Shown piece after piece: positions 2,909 to 12,574 of a stretch of DNA of 29,514 bases; position 1 is the stretch's first letter, and every line of letters starts with the position of its first letter. Below the pieces are notes generated by a model that saw only the letters and a program-made list of their open reading frames with translations, was not told the DNA's origin and made no database searches. The DNA comes from an uncultured Dehalococcoidia bacterium (lineage in GTDB: Bacteria; Chloroflexota; Dehalococcoidia; Lucifugimonadales; UBA3495), in NCBI GenBank assembly GCA_950072105.1, contig CATMOE010000045.1, positions 1 to 29,514 of the forward strand, written 5' to 3'. The position numbers were made by a program, and so were the translations under genes.

Positions 2909-4597
2909 TCAGGGACGCATGCGGGTAAAGTCAACATCCTCTTGCCAAACCCGAGGGCGTGGCTCCGAATCTTGCTGCACCATAACGTTGCATAGCCAGT
3001 TGCCGTCGTCCGGTTCGGGGTAATCGCTGCGGTAGTGGGAGCCACGGGACTCCCGGCGGGCCAAAGCGCTTTGGCAAGTCAGCTGGGCGACGGTCAAGAT
3101 GCTTTGGACATCCAGCCACTCTTGCCAGGCCATGTTATACACCTTGATAGCTGGCACGGAGGCTGTTCCGGCCCGTTGGGCGAGTTCTTCCAAAGAGACA
3201 AGGGCCTCCTCAAGCCCAAGGCCGGAACGGACGATTCCGCCTTTGTCCCACATAAGGCTTTCGATCTCTTTCCGTATCGAGTGGATGTTCTCACCACCGT
3301 CTCGGCCCATGGGCAGTGTGGCGTCGCCGATGGCATCATCTATCTGTTTCCCATGCACCACCGGTTGGGAGCGGTCCGAGGCGAACTCCGCCATGGCATC
3401 TCCGGCCAGCGCTCCGAACACCGTGGACTCGGCGACGCCGTTGCCACCCAGCCGGTTGGCTCCGTGAACTCCGCCCGAGTCTTCCCCGGCGACAAACAGC
3501 CCGTCCAGGCCGCTGCGGCACAATTGGTCGATGCGCACGCCACCCATGTGGAAGTGAGCGGTGGGGGAAACTTTGACCGGCTCGCGGCCCAGATCGAAGC
3601 CCACTTCGCGGCACCTGGCCGCCATGCCGGGAAAGGTGCGCTCCACGAATTCGGCCCCCAGGTGGGAAACGTCAAGCAGCACGGCTCCGTCGGGGGTACC
3701 CCGTCCGGCCTGGATCTCCATGTATCCGGCTCGAGACACCATGTCTCGCGTGGACCGCTCCATGCGCTCCGGGTCGTAGCGCTCCATGAACCGTTCGCCC
3801 AGGGCGTTAAGCAGGTAACCACCGGCGCCTCTCAATCCCTCTTCCAGCACCGAGCCGGTGATGATCGTCTCGCCGGCCACCAAGCCGGTGGGATGGAACT
3901 GGTACATCTCCATGTCCTGAAGCACGCAACCGGCCCGGTAACACAAGGCCATGCCATCGCCGCACTTTTCTAGGGACGGCGCGGCGATGGTGTACATCCG
4001 GGCGCCCCCGCCGGTGGACATCAGCGTGGCTTTCGCGTTGACGGCGGTGAATTCGCCGGAACGTATGTCCAGCAATAGCGCTCCTCCCACACCGCCGTTT
4101 TCATCTTTGAGCAGGGAGATGGCCCGTTGCTCATCAAGTAAAGTCAGGTCTGCCATAAGAACGTTTTCTTTCAGACGGGACATTATCTCGATGCCGGTGA
4201 GGTCGCCCCGGTGAACGGTGCGGTCGAAGCTCTGACCGGCGAAGGCCTTTTGCAAGATGTGCCCCTGGGCGTCGCGATCGAAAAAGCAGCCTAGCTGCTC
4301 CAGTTCGGAGATGATTAAGGGGGCATTATTCACCAGGACCCAAGCCAATTCCTGGTTATTTATGAAGGCCCCGCCGCGTATCGTGTCCTCGAAGTGCAGA
4401 TCGAAGGTGTCTTTTGGGTCCATGACGGCGTTGTAGCCCCCCTGTACCATGCGGGTACAGCCGCTCTGTCCCACCAACCCCTTGGCGGCTACAGCGATTT
4501 GGAGGTGTTGGTTCGCCCGCCGGGCGTGAAGCGCCGCCAACAATCCAGCGCCTCCGCCGCCCAGGATCAAGATGTCGGTCTCTAGTTGCTGATACAT
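2909..4597 (-). CDS. sdhA: Succinate dehydrogenase/fumarate reductase-family flavoprotein (TfrA/NadB-like, probably non-covalent FAD)
   Basis: GGGGAG FAD motif, QFHPTG, EGLRGAGG, ERSTRD, TAHFHMGG, HGANRLGGN and RRESRGSHYRSDYP. Divergent from the operon carrying sdhCDB. Symbol is family-level only. Confidence 0.88.
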   Translation of the reverse strand: MYQQLETDILILGGGGAGLLAALHARRANQHLQIAVAAKGLVGQSGCTRMVQGGYNAVMDPKDTFDLHFEDTIRGGAFINNQELAWVLVNNAPLIISELEQLGCFFDRDAQGHILQKAFAGQSFDRTVHRGDLTGIEIMSRLKENVLMADLTLLDEQRAISLLKDENGGVGGALLLDIRSGEFTAVNAKATLMSTGGGARMYTIAAPSLEKCGDGMALCYRAGCVLQDMEMYQFHPTGLVAGETIITGSVLEEGLRGAGGYLLNALGERFMERYDPERMERSTRDMVSRAGYMEIQAGRGTPDGAVLLDVSHLGAEFVERTFPGMAARCREVGFDLGREPVKVSPTAHFHMGGVRIDQLCRSGLDGLFVAGEDSGGVHGANRLGGNGVAESTVFGALAGDAMAEFASDRSQPVVHGKQIDDAIGDATLPMGRDGGENIHSIRKEIESLMWDKGGIVRSGLGLEEALVSLEELAQRAGTASVPAIKVYNMAWQEWLDVQSILTVAQLTCQSALARRESRGSHYRSDYPEPDDGNWLCNVMVQQDSEPRPRVWQEDVDFTRMRP

Positions 4598-4630
4598 AGG
4601 CCCCTGCGCTTGGGTGAATTACTATGGCCA

Positions 4631-4659
4631 AATATAATCTACCGGCAACCCCGCTGCAA
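4631..4659 (-). promoter_or_regulatory. Putative sigma70 promoter of the flavoprotein gene
   Basis: Minus strand TTGCAG-17 nt-TATATT, ending 33 nt upstream of the ATG at 4597. Confidence 0.5.
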
Positions 4660-4684
4660 CGTCCCTGTAGTTCCTTGGCATACC

Positions 4685-4762
4685 GTCATCCCGGCGTAGG
4701 CCGGGGTCCAAGCACACCGCTCTGGGGAAAGTTTCCTGGATTCCGGCCTGCGCCGGGATGAC
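4685..4762. repeat. REP-like inverted pair family B (gtcatcccggcgcaggccggaatcca)
   Basis: Arms 4685-4710 and 4737-4762 are near-perfect inverted repeats; another copy at 13574-13599. Confidence 0.85.
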
Positions 4763-4808
4763 AGTGGAATTCTGAGGTAGAGGCGCCGCGCCCGTATTCG
4801 GGCTTTCC

Positions 4809-4837
4809 TTGACACCCTATGTACCCCTGGCTACAAT
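4809..4837 (+). promoter_or_regulatory. Sigma70 promoter of the hydro-lyase/sdhCDB operon
   Basis: TTGACA (4809-4814), 17 nt spacer, TACAAT (4832-4837); near consensus, about 60 nt upstream of ATG 4900. Confidence 0.75.
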
Positions 4838-4899
4838 CGCCGCCAGAAGCCCACGGACCGGCCCATTTCTCCAGGCATTTCGATGATTAGGAAAGTCTG

Positions 4900-5847
4900 A
4901 TGGTCAGTGCTAGCACCGGTATATCCCAAGAACTGCTGTACCAGGTTGGGTACGAAGTTAATAAAAGGGCCGCCATCGTTGTGCCCCAGGACGGGCTGAC
5001 GGCCTTCGGCAACGCCTGGGAACGGGAAAGCAAGCCCTTGGCCCACTTCATTTTGGGCAAGATTCTGGAGAACGCCAAACTGGCCGTGGCCGACGCCCGC
5101 CCCATGTGCGGCGACACCGGATTGCCCCGCTACTACGTGAAAGTGGGCAACGAGGCTCGCATCGATGGCGGCTTCGTGGCTCTGGAGCGCTCGCTACGCC
5201 GGGCGGTGGCTGACGTTACCCAGGATATCCAGCTTCGGGCCAACAGGGTCCATCCGTTGACCCGCAAAAACCCGGGCAACAACCTGGGGGTGTTCGCGCC
5301 CAACATCGACTACTCTTTCGAACCGGATGGCGATTGGATCGACATCATCGCCGTGCACAAAGGCGGCCTTTTCGGCACCGATTACCGTATGTTGTTTCCC
5401 GCCGACGGCACCGACGGGATCAAGCGGTTCTTGTTGGACAACATGGCTGAGTTTGCCCGCCGGGGCCTTTCCTGCCCGCCCGTAGTGGTGGGAGTGGGAC
5501 TGGGCGGCACCAAGGACCAGGCTGTTTCCCTTTCTAAAGAGGCCGCTTGCTTGCGGCTCATCGGAAACCGGCACCCGGATCCAGTCGTTGCGGTCTTGGA
5601 AGAAGAACTACGGGAGTTGGCTAACAAAACAGGGTTTGGCGTCATGGGTGTCGGCGGCGACACCACGGCACTGGACGTGCACATCGAGATCGCTTACACC
5701 CACACCGGCGGCGTGCCCATCGCCATATCCCAGTTCTGCACCGCTTACCGCCGGGCAGTGGCCCGGATCCACGCCGATGGAGAAGTCGAGTTCCGGGAAG
5801 ACCCTCTCTGGTTCACGGATTACTACCGCCGGGAGGGGATCGACTAG
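4900..5847 (+). CDS. Fe-S hydro-lyase alpha subunit (class I fumarate hydratase / L-tartrate dehydratase alpha family)
   Basis: RPMCGDTG (cf. CQDTG), SCPPVVVGVGLGG, GVMGVGGDTTAL and QFCTAYRR give the three [4Fe-4S] Cys. RBS AGGA upstream. Confidence 0.9.
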   Translation: MVSASTGISQELLYQVGYEVNKRAAIVVPQDGLTAFGNAWERESKPLAHFILGKILENAKLAVADARPMCGDTGLPRYYVKVGNEARIDGGFVALERSLRRAVADVTQDIQLRANRVHPLTRKNPGNNLGVFAPNIDYSFEPDGDWIDIIAVHKGGLFGTDYRMLFPADGTDGIKRFLLDNMAEFARRGLSCPPVVVGVGLGGTKDQAVSLSKEAACLRLIGNRHPDPVVAVLEEELRELANKTGFGVMGVGGDTTALDVHIEIAYTHTGGVPIAISQFCTAYRRAVARIHADGEVEFREDPLWFTDYYRREGID

Positions 5848-5875
5848 AGGCTAATCCGGCAATTTGTTCCATTAG

Positions 5876-5965
5876 TGGTTCGACAAGCCTGTCCTAAGCC
5901 TGCCGAAGGGCTCACCACGAACGGAAGACCGGACTAAGACGGTTTGTCCTGAGCTTGTCGAAGGA
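5876..5965. repeat. REP-like cluster family C (tggttcgacaagctcaccacgaacgg / gtcctgagcttgtcgaagg), nested
   Basis: Matches the copies at 21341-21499. One unit is interrupted by a 23-nt related unit (5888-5910). Confidence 0.8.
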
Positions 5966-6000
5966 CACCGCATCCGAAGAAATTCTCAGGAGTGATGACC

Positions 6001-6675
6001 ATGTCCCAGTATCAGGGACGGGAATGGCACCTTGATTGTCCCTTAACCGGGGAAGACATAGACCAACTTAACGTTGGAGACTTGGTGTACCTGAGCGGCC
6101 CGGTATTCACCGCCCGGGACGGGGTCTATAAACACATGCTGGTGGAGGGCCATGCTCCGCCCATCGATCTGCTTGCCCTGACCAACGTTACCTTCCAATC
6201 AGCCCCCGCCGGAGTGGAGGTATCCCCGGGAAAGTACCACGTGTCTTCCCTGCAAGCCACCGCCGGGTTTCGATACGCCCAGTACATGCCTCAACTACTG
6301 GAGGAGTTCGGCGTCAAGGTTGTGGTCGGCAAGGCGGGCATGTCCGAGGAAGTCTACCGGAACGTGTTCCTAAAGCACGGCGCGGTTTGTCTCACCACCA
6401 TGGGTTACGGACTGGGCGCCATTTACGGCGGCGCCATCAAGGACGTTCTAGGGGTGTACTGGGTGGAGGAGTTGGGTATCTCCGAGGCACTGTGGATACT
6501 GGATCTGGAGCGTTTGGGGCCCCTACTGGTGGAGGGAGACGTTCGGGGTAACAGCTTTTTCGCCGGAGCCAACGAGGAGATCAACCGAAACTTGGGGTCC
6601 TTGTACGAAGGGCTAAAACCTCCGGTCTACAGCCGCTTGGGCGAAGAGCACAAGCCGGAAATCGAGCTCTTTTAG
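6001..6675 (+). CDS. Fe-S hydro-lyase beta subunit (fumarate hydratase / tartrate dehydratase beta family)
   Basis: LNVGDLVYLSGPVFTARD, VVVGKAGM, ELGISEALW and GPLLVEGD motifs. AGGAG at 5988-5992 favours the ATG at 6001. Confidence 0.9.
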   Translation: MSQYQGREWHLDCPLTGEDIDQLNVGDLVYLSGPVFTARDGVYKHMLVEGHAPPIDLLALTNVTFQSAPAGVEVSPGKYHVSSLQATAGFRYAQYMPQLLEEFGVKVVVGKAGMSEEVYRNVFLKHGAVCLTTMGYGLGAIYGGAIKDVLGVYWVEELGISEALWILDLERLGPLLVEGDVRGNSFFAGANEEINRNLGSLYEGLKPPVYSRLGEEHKPEIELF

Positions 6676-6684
6676 GGGATAGCG

Positions 6685-7089
6685 TTGGCTCTTTCTTTCC
6701 GAACTTGGTCCTTGCACGGCAGTGCTTCTCCCGACCGAAACTCGGGAACGCGTGCCGGCTGGTGGGCCTGGTTCCTCCAACGGCTGACGGGAGTGGCGCT
6801 GGTTGGGTATCTATTTCTGCACATCCTCGTTATTTCAACAGTTCAGGCTGGAGAGGACGCATTCAACAGCGTGTTGATCGTGCTCCAGAAGCCCTTCTTC
6901 GTGGTGTTGGACCTCTTTCTCATCGCCGCCGTCGTATATCACGGCTTGAATGGCGTGCGCGTCCTTTTCTTCGATCTGGGAATCGGACTCAAGCAGCAAG
7001 CCGGTATGTTCTGGATCTGCATGGTTCTGACCACGATTATTACAGTGGTGGCGGGATACTTTTCCTTGCCGTTGATATTCCGGAACTGA
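6685..7089 (+). CDS. sdhC: Succinate dehydrogenase cytochrome b subunit
   Basis: WFLQRLTG, YLFLHI and YHGLNGVR; three hydrophobic helices; upstream of sdhD and sdhB. TTG start is uncertain. Confidence 0.88.
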   Translation: MALSFRTWSLHGSASPDRNSGTRAGWWAWFLQRLTGVALVGYLFLHILVISTVQAGEDAFNSVLIVLQKPFFVVLDLFLIAAVVYHGLNGVRVLFFDLGIGLKQQAGMFWICMVLTTIITVVAGYFSLPLIFRN

Positions 7090-7116
7090 ATCGGACAGGA
7101 GCTCAGATCAAGGCTT

Positions 7117-7512
7117 ATGGCCGCGCCGTTAACTGAAAATCAAGCTACTGGAGTAGTTGGATTCTGGCCCTGGTTCTTCCAGCGGATCAGCGGTGTGTTG
7201 CTGATAGCTTTGCTGGCGGTCCATATCTGGATGGGCCACTTTTCCGGACTGCGAGCGGTGATAGAAGGAAGCCAAGAAGAGTTGGTGTTGTACAGCATCG
7301 TGCAGCAACGGCTGGCACAGGGACTCTTCGTATTTGTGGACTTCTCGTTGCTGGGCTTGGTTCTTTACCATGGCCTCAACGGCATGCGCAACATCCTGCT
7401 CGAGTGGCCCGCCGCCGCCCGGCGAGCCCAAGCGATGACTTTGGGTCTGTGGGTCCTGGGCGCTGCCACCTTTGTCTACGGCGCGTGGGCTTTGCTGGCA
7501 TTTATGCTGTGA
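7117..7512 (+). CDS. sdhD: Succinate dehydrogenase membrane anchor subunit
   Basis: WFFQRISG, AVHIW and YHGLNGMRN; three TM segments. Confidence 0.85.
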   Translation: MAAPLTENQATGVVGFWPWFFQRISGVLLIALLAVHIWMGHFSGLRAVIEGSQEELVLYSIVQQRLAQGLFVFVDFSLLGLVLYHGLNGMRNILLEWPAAARRAQAMTLGLWVLGAATFVYGAWALLAFML

Positions 7513-7540
7513 TGGATGAAGTCGAGTTGTTGGACGACAT

Positions 7541-8284
7541 ATGGCGGACATAACTCTCACGATAAAACGAACCGGTGCGGCGGATGAAGCCGGTCCTAGC
7601 TGGCAGAGTTTTCAGGTGCCCGAGATCGCCGAAACCATGAGTGTTTTGGACGCTCTGATATGGGTTCAACAGAACTCGGACCCCACTTTGGCATTCCGCC
7701 GGGCCTGCCGGGTGAAGATGTGCGGCACCTGTGGAGTGGTGATCAACGGGCGTGAAGGTTTAGCCTGCGGCACGCTGGTGCGGAGCCTGGTGGGAGACCG
7801 GGGTGGCGAAGTGCGGGTGGAACCTATGCGGCATCTGCCGGTGGTGCGGGACCTGGTGACCGACCCTGGGGTTTTCTACCAGCACTTGGCCGGGGCAGGC
7901 GCTGCGTTTTCCCCCAAAGACGGCGGCCAGGAACCGGCAGAGATCTTGCCGGACTCCAAGGAACGGAAGACGATCGACCCCCACCGGGAATGCATCTACT
8001 GCGGCCTGTGCTACTCGGCGTGTTCCGTGGCTGGGCTGGACTCGGGTTTCCTGGGTCCGGCGGCCTTGAACCGGGCGTTCACCCTGGTATCCGACAGCCG
8101 GGACGGGGGCGGTAAACAACGATTGCAAGCAGTCGCCGATGAGCAGGGAATATGGCGGTGCCACACGATTTTCGAGTGCACGGCAGTCTGCCCTAAGGGG
8201 ATCCCCATCACCGCGGCCATCCAGGGGCTGAAGCGAAAGGTAGTTGTAAGCAAGCTTAAGGGTCTGATTGGGCTGGATCGGTAG
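7541..8284 (+). CDS. sdhB: Succinate dehydrogenase/fumarate reductase iron-sulfur subunit
   Basis: ACRVKMCGTC...LAC [2Fe-2S], CIYCGLCYSAC and CHTIFECTAVCP ([4Fe-4S]/[3Fe-4S]). Confidence 0.93.
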   Translation: MADITLTIKRTGAADEAGPSWQSFQVPEIAETMSVLDALIWVQQNSDPTLAFRRACRVKMCGTCGVVINGREGLACGTLVRSLVGDRGGEVRVEPMRHLPVVRDLVTDPGVFYQHLAGAGAAFSPKDGGQEPAEILPDSKERKTIDPHRECIYCGLCYSACSVAGLDSGFLGPAALNRAFTLVSDSRDGGGKQRLQAVADEQGIWRCHTIFECTAVCPKGIPITAAIQGLKRKVVVSKLKGLIGLDR

Positions 8285-9548
8285 CCAGGGCTTCCAGGGC
8301 TTGGCGGACGATCTGTTTTCGTATTTCCCGCTCTTCCTCGGGAGGCAAGTCCGAGTCGCCCAATAGGTTGACGATTCCTTGTCCACGGACGATTCGGTTA
8401 GATCCCACCGCCTTCGCCACGGCGGTCATGGCGGTTACTTGAGCCACGGGAATGCCGGCTTTTTCCAACTCGGTGGTGATCGCAGCGCCGCTACGAGTGC
8501 TGGTCCCTCAAGTCGACGTCAAAATCACCGAATCGACCCCGGCCTCTATCAGCCTGGCCGCCATCTCACGGCCCATGCGCCGGCTGTTTTCCAACGGGTT
8601 GCTGTTTCCGGTGGTCGACAGGAATTCCGGGTGCAGCTTCCCAACCAGGCCGTCCCGCTCCATCTGCCGCAGCACGTCGACGGGCACCAACCGGTGGGGG
8701 TCTTGTTCCACCGGACGGTTGTCGTAGCCGCCGTGGGCGACCTCGTACTCCCCGGCCTGCAATGAGTCCATGCCATCGATGGAGTAGGCTCCCCAAACCT
8801 GGGCAAAAGCCCTGGGTATCTGGTCGGGGTTCCCTTTGGGGACGAGACCGCCGTCGGTGACTATGGCGACGGTCGCTCGGGACATGTCGGGCACCGGCGG
8901 CGGCGCTGGGACTGCTTCAATCGATTTGATCGGCACCTCCGCCTCAAAAGCTTCGCCACGCATCTTGGATAGAAGCATGCCGGTCAGGCGGCGGGCGGCG
9001 GTGTTTTCGACGAATTCGGACCGGAGTTTGCCCTGGGAGAAATAACCTTCGTCAGCCGGACGTCCGATGACTCCCTGGGCGGCTAGTTTGTTTGCCAGCC
9101 GTGCCATGTCCGCCAACACATCCCTCATCCGGGAAACGTCATCCCCCGAGTCCACGATGTAGATCGATTCACGGTAAAGGTCCACGCCGGGGTTCTCTCC
9201 GGCCATGGCTGTAACCGCTGGAATGCCCAGGTCTTCTTGAACGGCGGCGCATACCGCTCCGGCGGCGGTCCCATACCGGCCTGCCTGAAAGCAAGGACCG
9301 GCCACGAAGAGTTCGGCTTGAGCTTCTTTGACCTGTTGAGTGACCATGGCGGTCACTTCTTGGACGTTCTCGGCGGCGTAGTTATCTCCGCATATTATGG
9401 TGGTGACTACCTGGGTCCCGTCACCCAAGACCTGTTCAAGCAACCGGCCGGGTCCCACCGCGCCGGGACGAATCTCCGGCGGTAAACCGGCCTGTTCCTC
9501 GCCGCCAATCCCGCCGAAAAACTGGTTCAGGTAGTGGACTACTCGCAT
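8256..9548 (-). CDS. grdB: Glycine/betaine/sarcosine/D-proline reductase family selenoprotein B (430 aa, Sec encoded by in-frame UGA at 8508-8510)
   Basis: N-term MRVVHYLNQFFGGIGGEE, GPCFQAGRYG, HGGYD and DPHRLVPVD. After VILTST-TGA the same frame continues GTSTRSGAAITTELEKAGIPVAQVTAM...VGSNRIV, the typical GrdB C-terminus, to TAA at 8256. Symbol is family-level only. Confidence 0.92.
8480..8496 (-). promoter_or_regulatory. Putative bacterial SECIS hairpin
   Basis: mRNA UGA-GGGACCAGCAC-UCGUAGC-GGC-GCUGCGA: 7-bp stem (one G.U) starting 12 nt after the UGA, with a G-first apical loop. Confidence 0.65.
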
Positions 9549-9578: not shown

Positions 9579-10880
9579 TTAGTAAATTATCGATTGCAGC
9601 CGGGACGCGCCCTGGTTGTTGGTTACTCCGCACACGCTGACGCCTGGCAATTCCTTTAGATCTGCCAGCAAGGTCTCCACCTCCGGGTTGCCGGCGATGA
9701 CCGTTTCGACGGCAGGGGCCGGCCAAGAGATGTCGGCGGCTTCGCTTACGTTGACCACGGCATCCACACCGGGGATGTTCATCAGCGCCGCCGACTCGGC
9801 CCGCCGGTCCGGGGCCGTGTCGCTGACCATGATTGCCGTTTTTATCCCCAGGTCCTCGCACAGCCGGGCTGTCTCGAACATGTCTGAATGGGGCGCGCCA
9901 CCGGCGTATTTGGTGATTATCACGCCATCGGCCTTAAATGTGTGCTTGACGATCTGGGCCGCCACCATGCAGTTTCGGTTGAGTTCATCAAGTTGTCCCG
10001 ACGATGTCGTGGCGACGACCCCGGCGAAGGTGATCTCCTTCGCTTCGTGAAGCCGGTACAGGTCCAGAATTATGGGATGGTTCTGGTGGAAGTAGGTGTC
10101 TAGCCCCCGCGCCCCCCAGGAATAAGAAACCACCACGGCTCCGTCCAGCCACTCGTTGGGGTGCAACGGCACTGGCAGCATCCCCCGGGTGTTGCCGCCG
10201 TAAAGGATGTTCTCGTCAACTTCCGTTCCGTGCTGGTGGCCGTGGATCTGGCCGATGTAAGCCACTCTGGGCAGATCCTTACGTCCGTCTTCACCCGCTC
10301 CGTCTAGATCGAAAACCTGGGTACTGTCGGGAGTCTTGCCTTGGGCGGTCCGGGCCAGGTACACGGAGGCTTTTACTGAAGCTAGGCGTAGGGCGTTGAG
10401 GACGGAATGGCGCGCCACTTCGGGGTGGGGGTGGGGTACCACGACCAGATGGCGCAGATTCCCGTAGGAGGAAGCTTGGGATGGCGGACCGCTCATCTCC
10501 AGTATTTTGGCGATCCCGCCACGCCGGGAAGTATACCCGCGTTCTCCACCCGGTTGGCCGCCGTCCACCACGGCAACTGCGGTGCCTCTAAGAACGTGGG
10601 TCGTGCCTTGGCCTGCCGCGGCGATAGGGCTCAAGATACCGGGAAAATCGGGTCCGGCGCCGGTTTCTTTAGCGCGAGGTTCCACGATATCGAACACATA
10701 GCCGACCCGGCAGGAATCGCCGGGGCCGACGATCTCCAAGTCCACACTTTCTAGCCGCTGGTCCTCAAGGAGATATCGGCGCAATTCTTCCAGATCGACC
10801 TGAAGGCGCGACCCGTCCAGTAGGGTTTTGGGGCCGGCGAAAAATGCGGTGATGGGGTGATTTGCCAGGGTTAACGTCAC
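9579..10880 (-). CDS. grdE: Glycine/sarcosine/betaine reductase protein B alpha/beta (GrdE/GrdG/GrdI-family) subunit
   Basis: DIVEPRAK, FPG, GQGTTHVLRG, LPRVAYI, LHPNEWLDGAVV, TYFHQNHPII and ADGVIITK. Directly upstream of the grdB-like gene; RBS AAGGAG before GTG. Symbol is family-level only. Confidence 0.88.
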   Translation of the reverse strand: MTLTLANHPITAFFAGPKTLLDGSRLQVDLEELRRYLLEDQRLESVDLEIVGPGDSCRVGYVFDIVEPRAKETGAGPDFPGILSPIAAAGQGTTHVLRGTAVAVVDGGQPGGERGYTSRRGGIAKILEMSGPPSQASSYGNLRHLVVVPHPHPEVARHSVLNALRLASVKASVYLARTAQGKTPDSTQVFDLDGAGEDGRKDLPRVAYIGQIHGHQHGTEVDENILYGGNTRGMLPVPLHPNEWLDGAVVVSYSWGARGLDTYFHQNHPIILDLYRLHEAKEITFAGVVATTSSGQLDELNRNCMVAAQIVKHTFKADGVIITKYAGGAPHSDMFETARLCEDLGIKTAIMVSDTAPDRRAESAALMNIPGVDAVVNVSEAADISWPAPAVETVIAGNPEVETLLADLKELPGVSVCGVTNNQGASRLQSIIY

Positions 10881-11027: not shown

Positions 11028-11600
11028 CTAACGGTCCATTTTCTTAACAGTATTGGCATTGGGGTCGTACTGATACCGGGTTACCTCGGTCAGTTTCTGA
11101 GACTCCAAGCGGACCACCAAAGCCCTTCCTCCGGTGATGTTTTCGGTGTGGTGAATCTCTCCCGGAAGGAAGAACGCTACCTTACCGTTTTTCTGGACAA
11201 AGCTGCCGGTCTCTTTGATCCGGGGAGTATCAACGCCTTCCCCTTTGTAGAACCAGCGCCACTTGGTCTGCTTGATGGCTCCGTCGTATACGCCGTAGAC
11301 AACCCAAGCTGCTCCGTGGTCGTGGGGGAGGTTGTCTTGGCCGGGTTTCTGAACGGTGCACATCAATAGGAAACCGGGCTCCGGGCTGCCGGAGTTTTCA
11401 TCAAAGTGGAGGTCGTACCGGCCGAACCCGCCTTCCTCGGGAAGGTTCAACTTTTCTTCCAACCAATCTGGGACATCCAGCAACACCTGCATGTGATCGG
11501 CCACGGCTTGGGCCTGTGCCAAAGGGTCCTTAGTGGAAGCGAAAATCTCTTTCACGTCGTCTACGAAAGCTTCCATGGTATAAGTCGCGGTTTGCGTCAT
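11028..11600 (-). CDS. Cupin (double-stranded beta-helix) metalloprotein, cysteine/thiol dioxygenase-like
   Basis: PHDHGAAWVVYGVYDG...PGEIHH 3-His cupin motifs; RBS AGGAGG. Confidence 0.8.
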   Translation of the reverse strand: MTQTATYTMEAFVDDVKEIFASTKDPLAQAQAVADHMQVLLDVPDWLEEKLNLPEEGGFGRYDLHFDENSGSPEPGFLLMCTVQKPGQDNLPHDHGAAWVVYGVYDGAIKQTKWRWFYKGEGVDTPRIKETGSFVQKNGKVAFFLPGEIHHTENITGGRALVVRLESQKLTEVTRYQYDPNANTVKKMDR

Positions 11601-11734
11601 CCCTAACCTCCTACGCTAGCGGCTAATGCTAAAGTTGGGCTCAATTGTGATGGGCAACCGTCTAAGTGTCAACCTGGCGTTGCTCCGTATTTTCAACATG
11701 TTTCATTGTTCCCGGCGAGTCTGAGCGGCGACCA

Positions 11735-11763
11735 TTGACGAGGGCACACCGCAGTGGTAGATT
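11735..11763 (+). promoter_or_regulatory. Sigma70 promoter with extended -10 for the isochorismatase-family gene
   Basis: TTGACG, 17 nt spacer ending TGG, then TAGATT. Confidence 0.65.
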
Positions 11764-11854
11764 CTTGGCAATAAGCAGCGTCAGATCTGTGGGTGCGGTA
11801 CTCGCATTTCGCCGTATGACGCCCAATCATCCGGCGCAGATTAGGAGACTTCAA

Positions 11855-12574
11855 ATGACTCAACGAGTATGGGACTCTTTTCTCACGGAGCAAGACCAAG
11901 CCCACCTGGCGCTCACCGGGCGCAAGCCCGTGGGGTTTGGCGAAAAGCCGGCCCTGCTGTTGGTGGACCTGTACCGGTGGGTCTTCGGTGACGACCCCGA
12001 GCCGTTGCTGGAAGGGATCAAGACCTGGCCGTCGAGTTGCGGACTGGCGGCGTGGGATGCTATTCCCCATATCCAGACATTGCTCCAAGCGGTCAGAAAC
12101 GCCGGGATACCCGTCATCCACATGACGGGCCTTGACGGTTGCGGCGTAGAGGGATGGAGCACTCGCAAGGGAGACCGTCGGCCGGTTGACACCGACCCAG
12201 CCGCCGCCGACCGGCGAAGCCGCGAATATGACATCATCGATGAAGTCGCGCCCATAGACGGCGAGGCATTCCTGCGAAAGTCTTCGCCCAGCAGCTTCTG
12301 GGGCACTCCCTTGGCGGGACACTTGAACTACCTGGGAGTGGATACCATCATCACGGTTGGAGAGAGCACCAGCGGCTGCGTCCGGGCCAGTGTGGTGGAT
12401 GGTTGCACCAACCGGTACCGAATGATCGTGGTTGAGGAATGCGTGTTTGACCGCCATGAAGCCGCACACGCCATCAACCTCTTCGACATGAACCAGAAAT
12501 ACGCCGACGTTCTGTCCCTGGCCGACGTACTGGAATGGATCGCCGACTGGAAAGCAAGAAAGGACGAATCCTAA
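11855..12574 (+). CDS. Isochorismatase-family cysteine hydrolase (maleamate amidohydrolase / N-carbamoylsarcosine amidase-like)
   Basis: GFGEKPALLLVD, K-SSPSSFWGT and GESTSGCVRASVVD give the D-K-C triad; FDMNQKYADV. RBS AGGAG at 11843. Confidence 0.9.
   Translation: MTQRVWDSFLTEQDQAHLALTGRKPVGFGEKPALLLVDLYRWVFGDDPEPLLEGIKTWPSSCGLAAWDAIPHIQTLLQAVRNAGIPVIHMTGLDGCGVEGWSTRKGDRRPVDTDPAAADRRSREYDIIDEVAPIDGEAFLRKSSPSSFWGTPLAGHLNYLGVDTIITVGESTSGCVRASVVDGCTNRYRMIVVEECVFDRHEAAHAINLFDMNQKYADVLSLADVLEWIADWKARKDES

Follow-up and report, generated by a model that had tools for sequence, protein, structure and literature searches.

Loss of both active-site cysteines in a conserved UxxSxxS branch of the selenoprotein B family

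A 29,514-nucleotide stretch of DNA from an uncultured Dehalococcoidia bacterium (the window) encodes a GrdB-family selenoprotein B in which both of the cysteines that follow the selenocysteine (Sec) at the active site are replaced by serine. The locus raises the question of whether this replacement is authentic and, if so, whether it implies a different chemistry, as a preliminary description of the sequence had proposed. That description read the motif as U-x-x-S-x-x-S with both serines encoded by AGC, and the minus-strand codons agree (ACG TCG ACT TGA GGG ACC AGC ACT CGT AGC GGC GCT; Table 1). They place Sec347 in the context VILTST-U-GTSTRSGAAI, with a single in-frame TGA in 8256-9548; the end previously given at 8487 takes the motif through Gly354, and the last Ala is at 8484-8486. 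The statement that clostridial proteins have both cysteines is also correct, all 14 of the Bacillota loci in the set of 80 fetched being UxxCxxC.

Table 1. Features of the selenoprotein B locus, in window coordinates
Feature	Position	Strand	Basis and remarks
Selenoprotein B, GrdB-family, UxxSxxS clade	8256..9548	-	430 aa, Sec347; profile matches, translation, AlphaFold model
U347, in-frame UGA decoded as selenocysteine	8508..8510	-	Codons; Sec machinery in genome
Ser350 (AGC), first Cys replaced	8499..8501	-	Outside SECIS stem; common to UxxSxxC grade and FarB-type proteins
Ser353 (AGC), second Cys replaced	8490..8492	-	Codon's first base paired in SECIS stem
Cys86, clade-specific gain, invariant in clade	9291..9293	-	Alignment; N-terminal domain, weakly in register with Sec347
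SECIS upper hairpin	8481..8495	-	Nucleotides 16-21 pair with 25-30, counted from U of UGA
GrdE-family partner, 433 aa, without GNCVSAC pyruvoyl-forming site	9579..10880	-	Profile and alignment; upstream of grdB, co-oriented
Cupin with weak similarity to mercaptosuccinate dioxygenase (E 0.00018)	11028..11600	-	Directly upstream of grdE, co-oriented; putative system member
Isochorismatase-family amidohydrolase	11666..12574	+	Putative system member

Profile searches placed the window protein within the protein B superfamily, with 480 bits against TIGR01918 (cut-off 65) and 452 bits against PF07355 (cut-off 22). It also combines an in-frame UGA and a SECIS element with host Sec machinery (SelA, SelB, SelD, and tRNA-Sec are all encoded in the source genome), and TGA occupies the Sec position in 77 of 77 UxxSxxS loci tallied. 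All of the substrate-specific (equivalog) models were missed, i.e., GrdB (TIGR01917; 434 bits, cut-off 602), GrdF (NF040794; 472 bits, cut-off 800), and GrdH (NF040795; 439 bits, cut-off 775). The protein lacks the UxxCxxC motif of GrdB together with all four GrdB motif elements that are found in the available part of PMC9751293, each of which occurs in 0-2 of 78 clade rows; two GrdF elements occur in 0 of 78. Gene calling by standard rules stops at 346 aa in nearly all of the 120 matches listed and, therefore, the motif is not visible in protein databases.

A sequencing error, a sporadic change, or a decaying gene could be suspected, since the source genome is a 164-contig assembly (92% complete, 6% contamination). 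However, the motif is present in 78 homologues from several phyla, and the same genome encodes a second UxxSxxS paralogue (61% identity) along with a UxxCxxC paralogue. The site is spanned by contigs of three independent RNA libraries, with the Ser codons unchanged among the 40 of 171 difference rows listed, and the SECIS element carries a compensatory change (see below). The gene was found in six RNA libraries, although library coverage is no proof of transcription. These results refute an artifact or decay, the probability of which we regard as negligible. Close homologues with Cys throughout, which the preliminary description had named as grounds for doubt, were not found; among homologues at least 54% identical to the window protein, 78 of 79 are UxxSxxS and the remaining one is UxxSxxC. 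All UxxSxxS rows share at least 56% identity with the window protein, and all others share less than 49% except one revertant. The proposal of selection rather than decay in the preliminary description is upheld by the clade-wide invariance of the motif, the compensatory SECIS change, and two TCC codons at +3. Promoter and terminator scans of the window gave results at chance level. Two orthologues of the window gene (93% and 94% identity) occur in a single assembly (G001, contigs C10 and C23). The source genome further encodes a PrdB-like selenoprotein (L121:1575-2801, G000 contig C105) that has UxxC and an extended C-terminal part; most family relatives give comparable weak matches.

We tabulated the motif in 178 distinct, near-full-length homologues, a set that is weighted towards close relatives, neighbours of FarE-like genes, and low-scoring outliers and is not a census (L060, unreadable at the motif, and L023, partial, are outside it). 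The motif was UxxSxxS in 78 rows, UxxCxxC in 69, UxxSxxC in 13, UxxGxxC in 6, UxxGxxS in 5, UxxAxxC and UxxDxxC in 2 each, and UxxDxxS, UxxCxxA, and UxxCxxS in 1 each. Hence, one or both cysteines are missing from 31 of the 100 non-UxxSxxS rows, and their loss recurs across the family. A FastTree analysis (112 rows after thinning at 82% identity, motif columns taken out) recovered a clade of 35 UxxSxxS rows plus a single UxxSxxC revertant with a support of 100, nested within a group that holds UxxSxxC rows (support 97). A quick IQ-TREE run on 72 rows (a random 18 UxxSxxS and 22 UxxCxxC, all other classes, and two FarB-type rows, with motif and Cys86 columns dropped) gave the same two nodes supports of 100 for the clade and 99 for the Ser+3 group, including FarB-type proteins. 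With roots set by midpoint only, the simplest reading of these trees would be a loss in the order CxxC, SxxC, SxxS. Clade members are found in Chloroflexota (Dehalococcoidia/SAR202), Binatia, and Syntrophobacter-type and other deltaproteobacterial MAGs. The source genome itself, going by the closest named relatives, is probably a SAR202-like representative of Dehalococcoidia. None of 301 Bacillota-phylum genomes, of which 96 have protein B genes, contained the exact motif DNA pattern, and 2 of 400 other genomes of the host phylum did; the clade is therefore patchy. Literature searches outside subscription journals and theses returned no description of it. The suggestion of an undescribed subfamily thus stands, as the group is monophyletic, falls under all equivalog cut-offs, and had no match in the literature search. 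Judged from alignments and trees, the UxxSxxS clade is a real, conserved branch of the selenoprotein B family. A separate Cys-free protein B lineage, UxxGxxS (L022, L265, L267, L268, and L269), occurs in the same genome family; its members have Glu232 and are without Cys86.

The SECIS element bears on each serine differently. Its pair 19-27 joins the first base of the +6 codon to the third base of the +8 codon, and is A-U in 85 of 85 rows with Ser at +6; among the 92 rows that have Cys at +6, it is U-A in 88 and U-G in 4. This coupled change is shared by the main clade, three other lineages, and the revertant. In addition, the +8 codon is GCT in 78 of 78 clade rows, a codon that makes up just 9.7% of Ala codons elsewhere. 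The co-variation and the fixed GCT show that Sec insertion is under selection. Folding energy of the region by itself gave no signal (z 0.18), and the predicted SECIS is supported by covariation, though not by folding energy alone. Since the element confines the +6 codon nearly to NGC (Cys, Ser, Arg, Gly), Ser353 need have no chemical role, and a hydroxyl function is not shown by the Ser alone. The Ser+3 codon lies outside the stem and draws on both Ser codon families (AGC in 71, AGT in 5, and TCC in 2 of 78 clade rows), which points to protein-level selection at this position. One clade member, L012 (G024), has gone back to UxxSxxC with its paired SECIS base also changed back and Cys86 retained.

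The pyruvoyl-forming site GNCVSAC, which was found in 12 of 13 partners of UxxCxxC proteins, is absent from all 64 clade GrdE proteins, so the window partner is not of the GrdB type in this respect; GrdI likewise lacks the site. Clade GrdE would thus be unable to make a pyruvoyl group and, by this reasoning, primary and secondary amines (e.g., glycine and sarcosine) are improbable substrates. The preliminary description had proposed tabulating the motif to see whether it marks a clade with distinct neighbours. This was borne out as to the single clade and a partner without the pyruvoyl site, but not as to neighbours that would name a substrate, since no transporter, substrate or pathway gene, or GrdD substitute common to the whole clade emerged from neighbour clustering or Pfam scans. 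Relatives of the isochorismatase (at least 62% identical) lie near clade grdEB in 18 of 80 loci, including Binatia-type loci, i.e., the linkage crosses phyla. A DUF255 thioredoxin-like gene with WCxxC adjoins 27 of 66 clade loci vs. 0 of 14 canonical loci, and a glutaredoxin-like gene follows grdA in 8 of 43 genomes. GrdC is grdEB-adjacent in 20 of 65 loci and GrdA in 17 of 65. The cupin had no Pfam or NCBIfam match and was linked to grdE in 2 of 80 loci. A link to sarcosine via the isochorismatase neighbour was dropped because the partner is without a pyruvoyl site, and a link to thioethers via the cupin was dropped because cupin linkage is genus-restricted. Elsewhere in the window, one of the genome's two succinate dehydrogenase sets and a two-subunit Fe-S fumarate hydratase (2909-8284) are convergent on grdB, an arrangement present in 2 of 80 loci. 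A dihydrolipoyl-dehydrogenase/mycothione-reductase-like gene occupies two overlapping plus-strand frames (1457-1846 and 1843-2841); its relative in L039 is also split, but broken elsewhere.

The remainder of the system was sought in 56 clade genomes (54 UxxSxxS, one revertant, and one unreadable at the motif), which are interrelated, derive from about two main lineages, and include many incomplete MAGs as well as several single-chromosome assemblies. GrdA and GrdC were each found in 53, acetate kinase in 11, and COX1 of a haem-copper oxidase in 52, whereas no genome gave a GrdD. All six clostridial controls had GrdA, GrdC, GrdD, and acetate kinase, and none had COX1. In the source genome, GrdA with its CxxU and GrdC both scored over cut-off on contig C28, providing both proteins expected of a complete system, and GrdD is absent from this 92%-complete genome as from the 55 others, while 6 of 6 controls were positive. 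CxxU was kept in 31 of 31 GrdA loci read and, since GrdA retains it, protein B would need no resolving Cys. GrdD carries the thiol that forms acetyl phosphate, and its alignment contains an invariant C-terminal Cys. Cys262 of GrdC is invariant and aligned with the FabH nucleophile, and the GrdC model resembles FabH and thiolases. A C-terminal GrdC tail of ~30 residues is missing from 25 of 25 clade copies vs. 0 of 6 controls; complex prediction for the clostridial tail with GrdD gave a score of 0.02, which weighs neither way, and docking of GrdD by the tail is only a correlation. The loss of GrdD follows host lineage rather than the motif: three relatives whose protein B motifs are confined to UxxCxxC or UxxGxxS likewise combine GrdC with the absence of GrdD, and the source genome itself has a UxxCxxC paralogue. 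With its FabH/thiolase-type Cys kept, GrdC may give the acetyl group to CoA in the absence of GrdD. That GrdC alone releases acetyl-CoA, for respiration and not as acetyl phosphate, is a tentative proposal to which we give slightly less than an even chance. The GrdD homologue PlsX is present and might stand in for GrdD, which we count against a GrdD-free reading.

Protein B had further been described as having a lone Sec. The neighbouring cysteines are indeed gone, but an invariant Cys86 was gained in the clade, which makes the claim uncertain. All 78 UxxSxxS rows have Cys86, as does the revertant; the position is Ala in the other 99 rows (in a subset of rows, all 44 canonical and all 12 UxxSxxC ones) and Gly in 2 FarB-type rows. 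In an AlphaFold model (pLDDT 92), the protein forms two alpha/beta domains whose elements follow one another in the same order; Sec347 lies just ahead of helix 348-363 and Cys86 ends strand 80-87, before helix 90-107. HHalign of the two domains sets Cys86 opposite Sec347. Cys86 might therefore stand in from the N-terminal domain as a resolving or protecting thiol, keeping the redox logic in a new geometry. We consider this rather doubtful, since the domain alignment is weak (E 0.005, probability 7%) and other Cys-free lineages (UxxGxxS, UxxDxxS) are without Cys86. Moreover, Cys96 and Cys372 are lost in the clade, Cys96 at the same node (1 of 78 rows keeps it), such that the gain of Cys86 may reflect a local exchange among Cys53, Cys96, and Cys100. 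A sequence search for a solved protein B structure found none, and fold searches gave generic alpha/beta matches only (best Z 11.1, rmsd 7.4, 131 aligned), with no bearing on function. A stand-alone N-terminal domain of protein B adjoins grdA in G024 (contig C2, 2079041-2079496).

The claim of the preliminary description that loss of the cysteines implies a different mechanism is not supported in that form. The available parts of PMC10838667 and PMC6778437 give carboxymethyl transfer from the Sec of protein B to protein A as the normal route, with the CxxC shielding Sec from oxidation, and in the former the carboxymethyl-selenoether is handed on to proteins A and C. Sec group transfer is thus the ordinary mechanism and the cysteines are described as protective; the recurrent Cys loss noted above, which includes FarB-type UxxSxxC, weakens the claim further. 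From family chemistry, the Sec347 selenolate, at a helix start with Ser350 and Ser353 on the next turns, would displace X of X-CH2-COO- to form a carboxymethyl-selenoether. The substrate would probably be pre-activated, i.e., a haloacetate, an onium, or an S-carboxymethyl compound, and the carboxymethyl group would then move to the Sec of GrdA, which the DUF255 thioredoxin-like or the glutaredoxin-like neighbour may re-reduce. The protein B cysteines would be accessory, and may have been shed in the two steps CxxC to SxxC to SxxS while compensatory change preserved the SECIS. By analogy to the textbook enzyme, we think it fairly probable that Sec attacks a pre-activated X-CH2-COO- and passes the carboxymethyl group to GrdA, leaving the cysteines dispensable. 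The whole reading, in which the window gene encodes the substrate-attacking protein B of a stripped-down glycine-reductase-type complex of mostly aerobic hosts, is one that we favour with modest confidence. Counted against it is a review (PMC13188914) that describes the UxxCxxC motif as a probable site of interaction with GrdA; the cysteines would then be functional.

An ordinary betaine-type reductase with GrdHI chemistry (glycine betaine to trimethylamine and acetyl phosphate), in which PlsX or another protein replaces GrdD and the Cys-to-Ser change is nearly neutral, would accommodate the presence of PlsX, the recurrent Cys loss in several lineages, and the absence of the pyruvoyl site from GrdI as well (PMC10838667, available part). 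We consider it unlikely, since the window protein falls below the GrdH cut-off, true GrdH rows are UxxCxxC and on another branch, acetate kinase is in so few of the 56 genomes, and no betaine transporter is among the scanned neighbours. A different reaction altogether, i.e., a Sec-dependent peroxidase, an alkyl scavenger, or a biosynthetic carboxymethyl donor run in reverse from acetyl-CoA, would suit aerobic hosts and frequent thioredoxin-like neighbours, and peroxidase activity of GrdB is named in a title in the reference list of PMC3091704. However, the retention of GrdA and GrdC, often adjacent to grdEB, speaks for a C2-transfer pathway, and the reverse direction would be unfavourable without strong coupling; such a reaction seems quite improbable. 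To return to the glycine-reductase-type complex, a bolder version is that SAR202-type Chloroflexota and Binatia possess an oxygen-compatible, four-protein selenium reductase that takes a halide or sulfur leaving group off carboxymethyl compounds and yields acetyl-CoA via GrdC alone, UxxSxxS and the relocated Cys86 being aerobic adaptations. This is speculative, and we regard it as possible at best. The motif by itself implies no new chemistry; rather, what it marks is a GrdD-less system of aerobic hosts that is as yet uncharacterised.

If the four-protein reductase exists, it would open a new path of assimilation or dehalogenation in soils and in the dark ocean. The greater novelty lies in the system (GrdE without a pyruvoyl site, tail-less GrdC, and no GrdD) rather than in the motif. 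The available part of PMC6778437 treats a gene without the motif as a likely pseudogene; given a large conserved clade without it, UxxCxxC is wrong as a required criterion. The retention in strict anaerobes of cysteines said to protect Sec and their loss in oxidase-bearing hosts make their role testable, and CxxC, SxxC, SxxS, and one revertant form a natural series for probing it. Likewise, a complex without GrdD offers a natural means to probe the division of carboxymethyl-selenoether cleavage between GrdC and GrdD. Annotation of these proteins as 'glycine reductase' is probably misleading in metabolic models of bacteria that are abundant in the deep ocean and in soil.

Among known systems, the glycine and sarcosine reductases (GrdB/GrdE and GrdF/GrdG with GrdA, GrdC, GrdD, and TrxAB; TIGR01917, NF040794) share with the clade the fold family, the STUG site, the SECIS position, a GrdA with CxxU, and a GrdC over cut-off (649 vs. 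450). The clade differs from them in being without the CxxC, the pyruvoyl site, GrdD, and an adjacent trxAB, in its shortened GrdC, and in its mostly acetate kinase-free, aerobic hosts. Betaine reductase (GrdH/GrdI; NF040795) resembles the clade in having Sec at the same site, a partner that is not processed to a pyruvoyl protein, and a pre-activated substrate; unlike the clade, it retains UxxCxxC and is on a separate branch, and the window protein scores 439 vs. its cut-off of 775. Closer is the fluoroacetate reductase FarB/FarE (Cloacibacillus porcorum MFA1; NF053623), which is likewise on the Ser+3 branch (support 99) with its first Cys changed to Ser, shares Asp232 with the clade, and has a partner without the pyruvoyl site. 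In the available part of PMC10838667, FarB is without the Sec-protecting CxxC, and processing cysteines are absent from FarE and GrdI. A FarE model search of 301 Bacillota-phylum genomes gave no match over cut-off; FarB-type loci were found via a profile search and a metagenome scan (111 of 150 representatives scanned). Two such loci have partners that score 681 (L277) and 665 (L278) on the FarE model (cut-off 675), and protein B of both is UxxSxxC. At L276:2302-3183 (minus strand), a 293-aa protein B fragment with Cys for Sec (CxxSxxC) is divergent from a FarE-like gene. These FarB-type rows, assigned by their FarE-like partner and not MFA1 FarB itself, are 43-45% identical, without Cys86, and keep the second Cys; the reservation that characterised reductases might already carry the motif thus applies to the first Cys but not to the second. 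The window GrdE scores only 164 bits on the FarE model (cut-off 675), and the hosts of the UxxSxxC grade differ from clade hosts in that GrdD is present in 7 of 7 tested. With FarBE, the window pair shares CxxC loss and an unprocessed partner, FarB-type proteins having lost one Cys and the clade both. FarB is the nearest functionally implicated relative, and cysteine loss, as traced in these sequences, is stepwise and half-precedented by the UxxSxxC grade, including FarB-type proteins.
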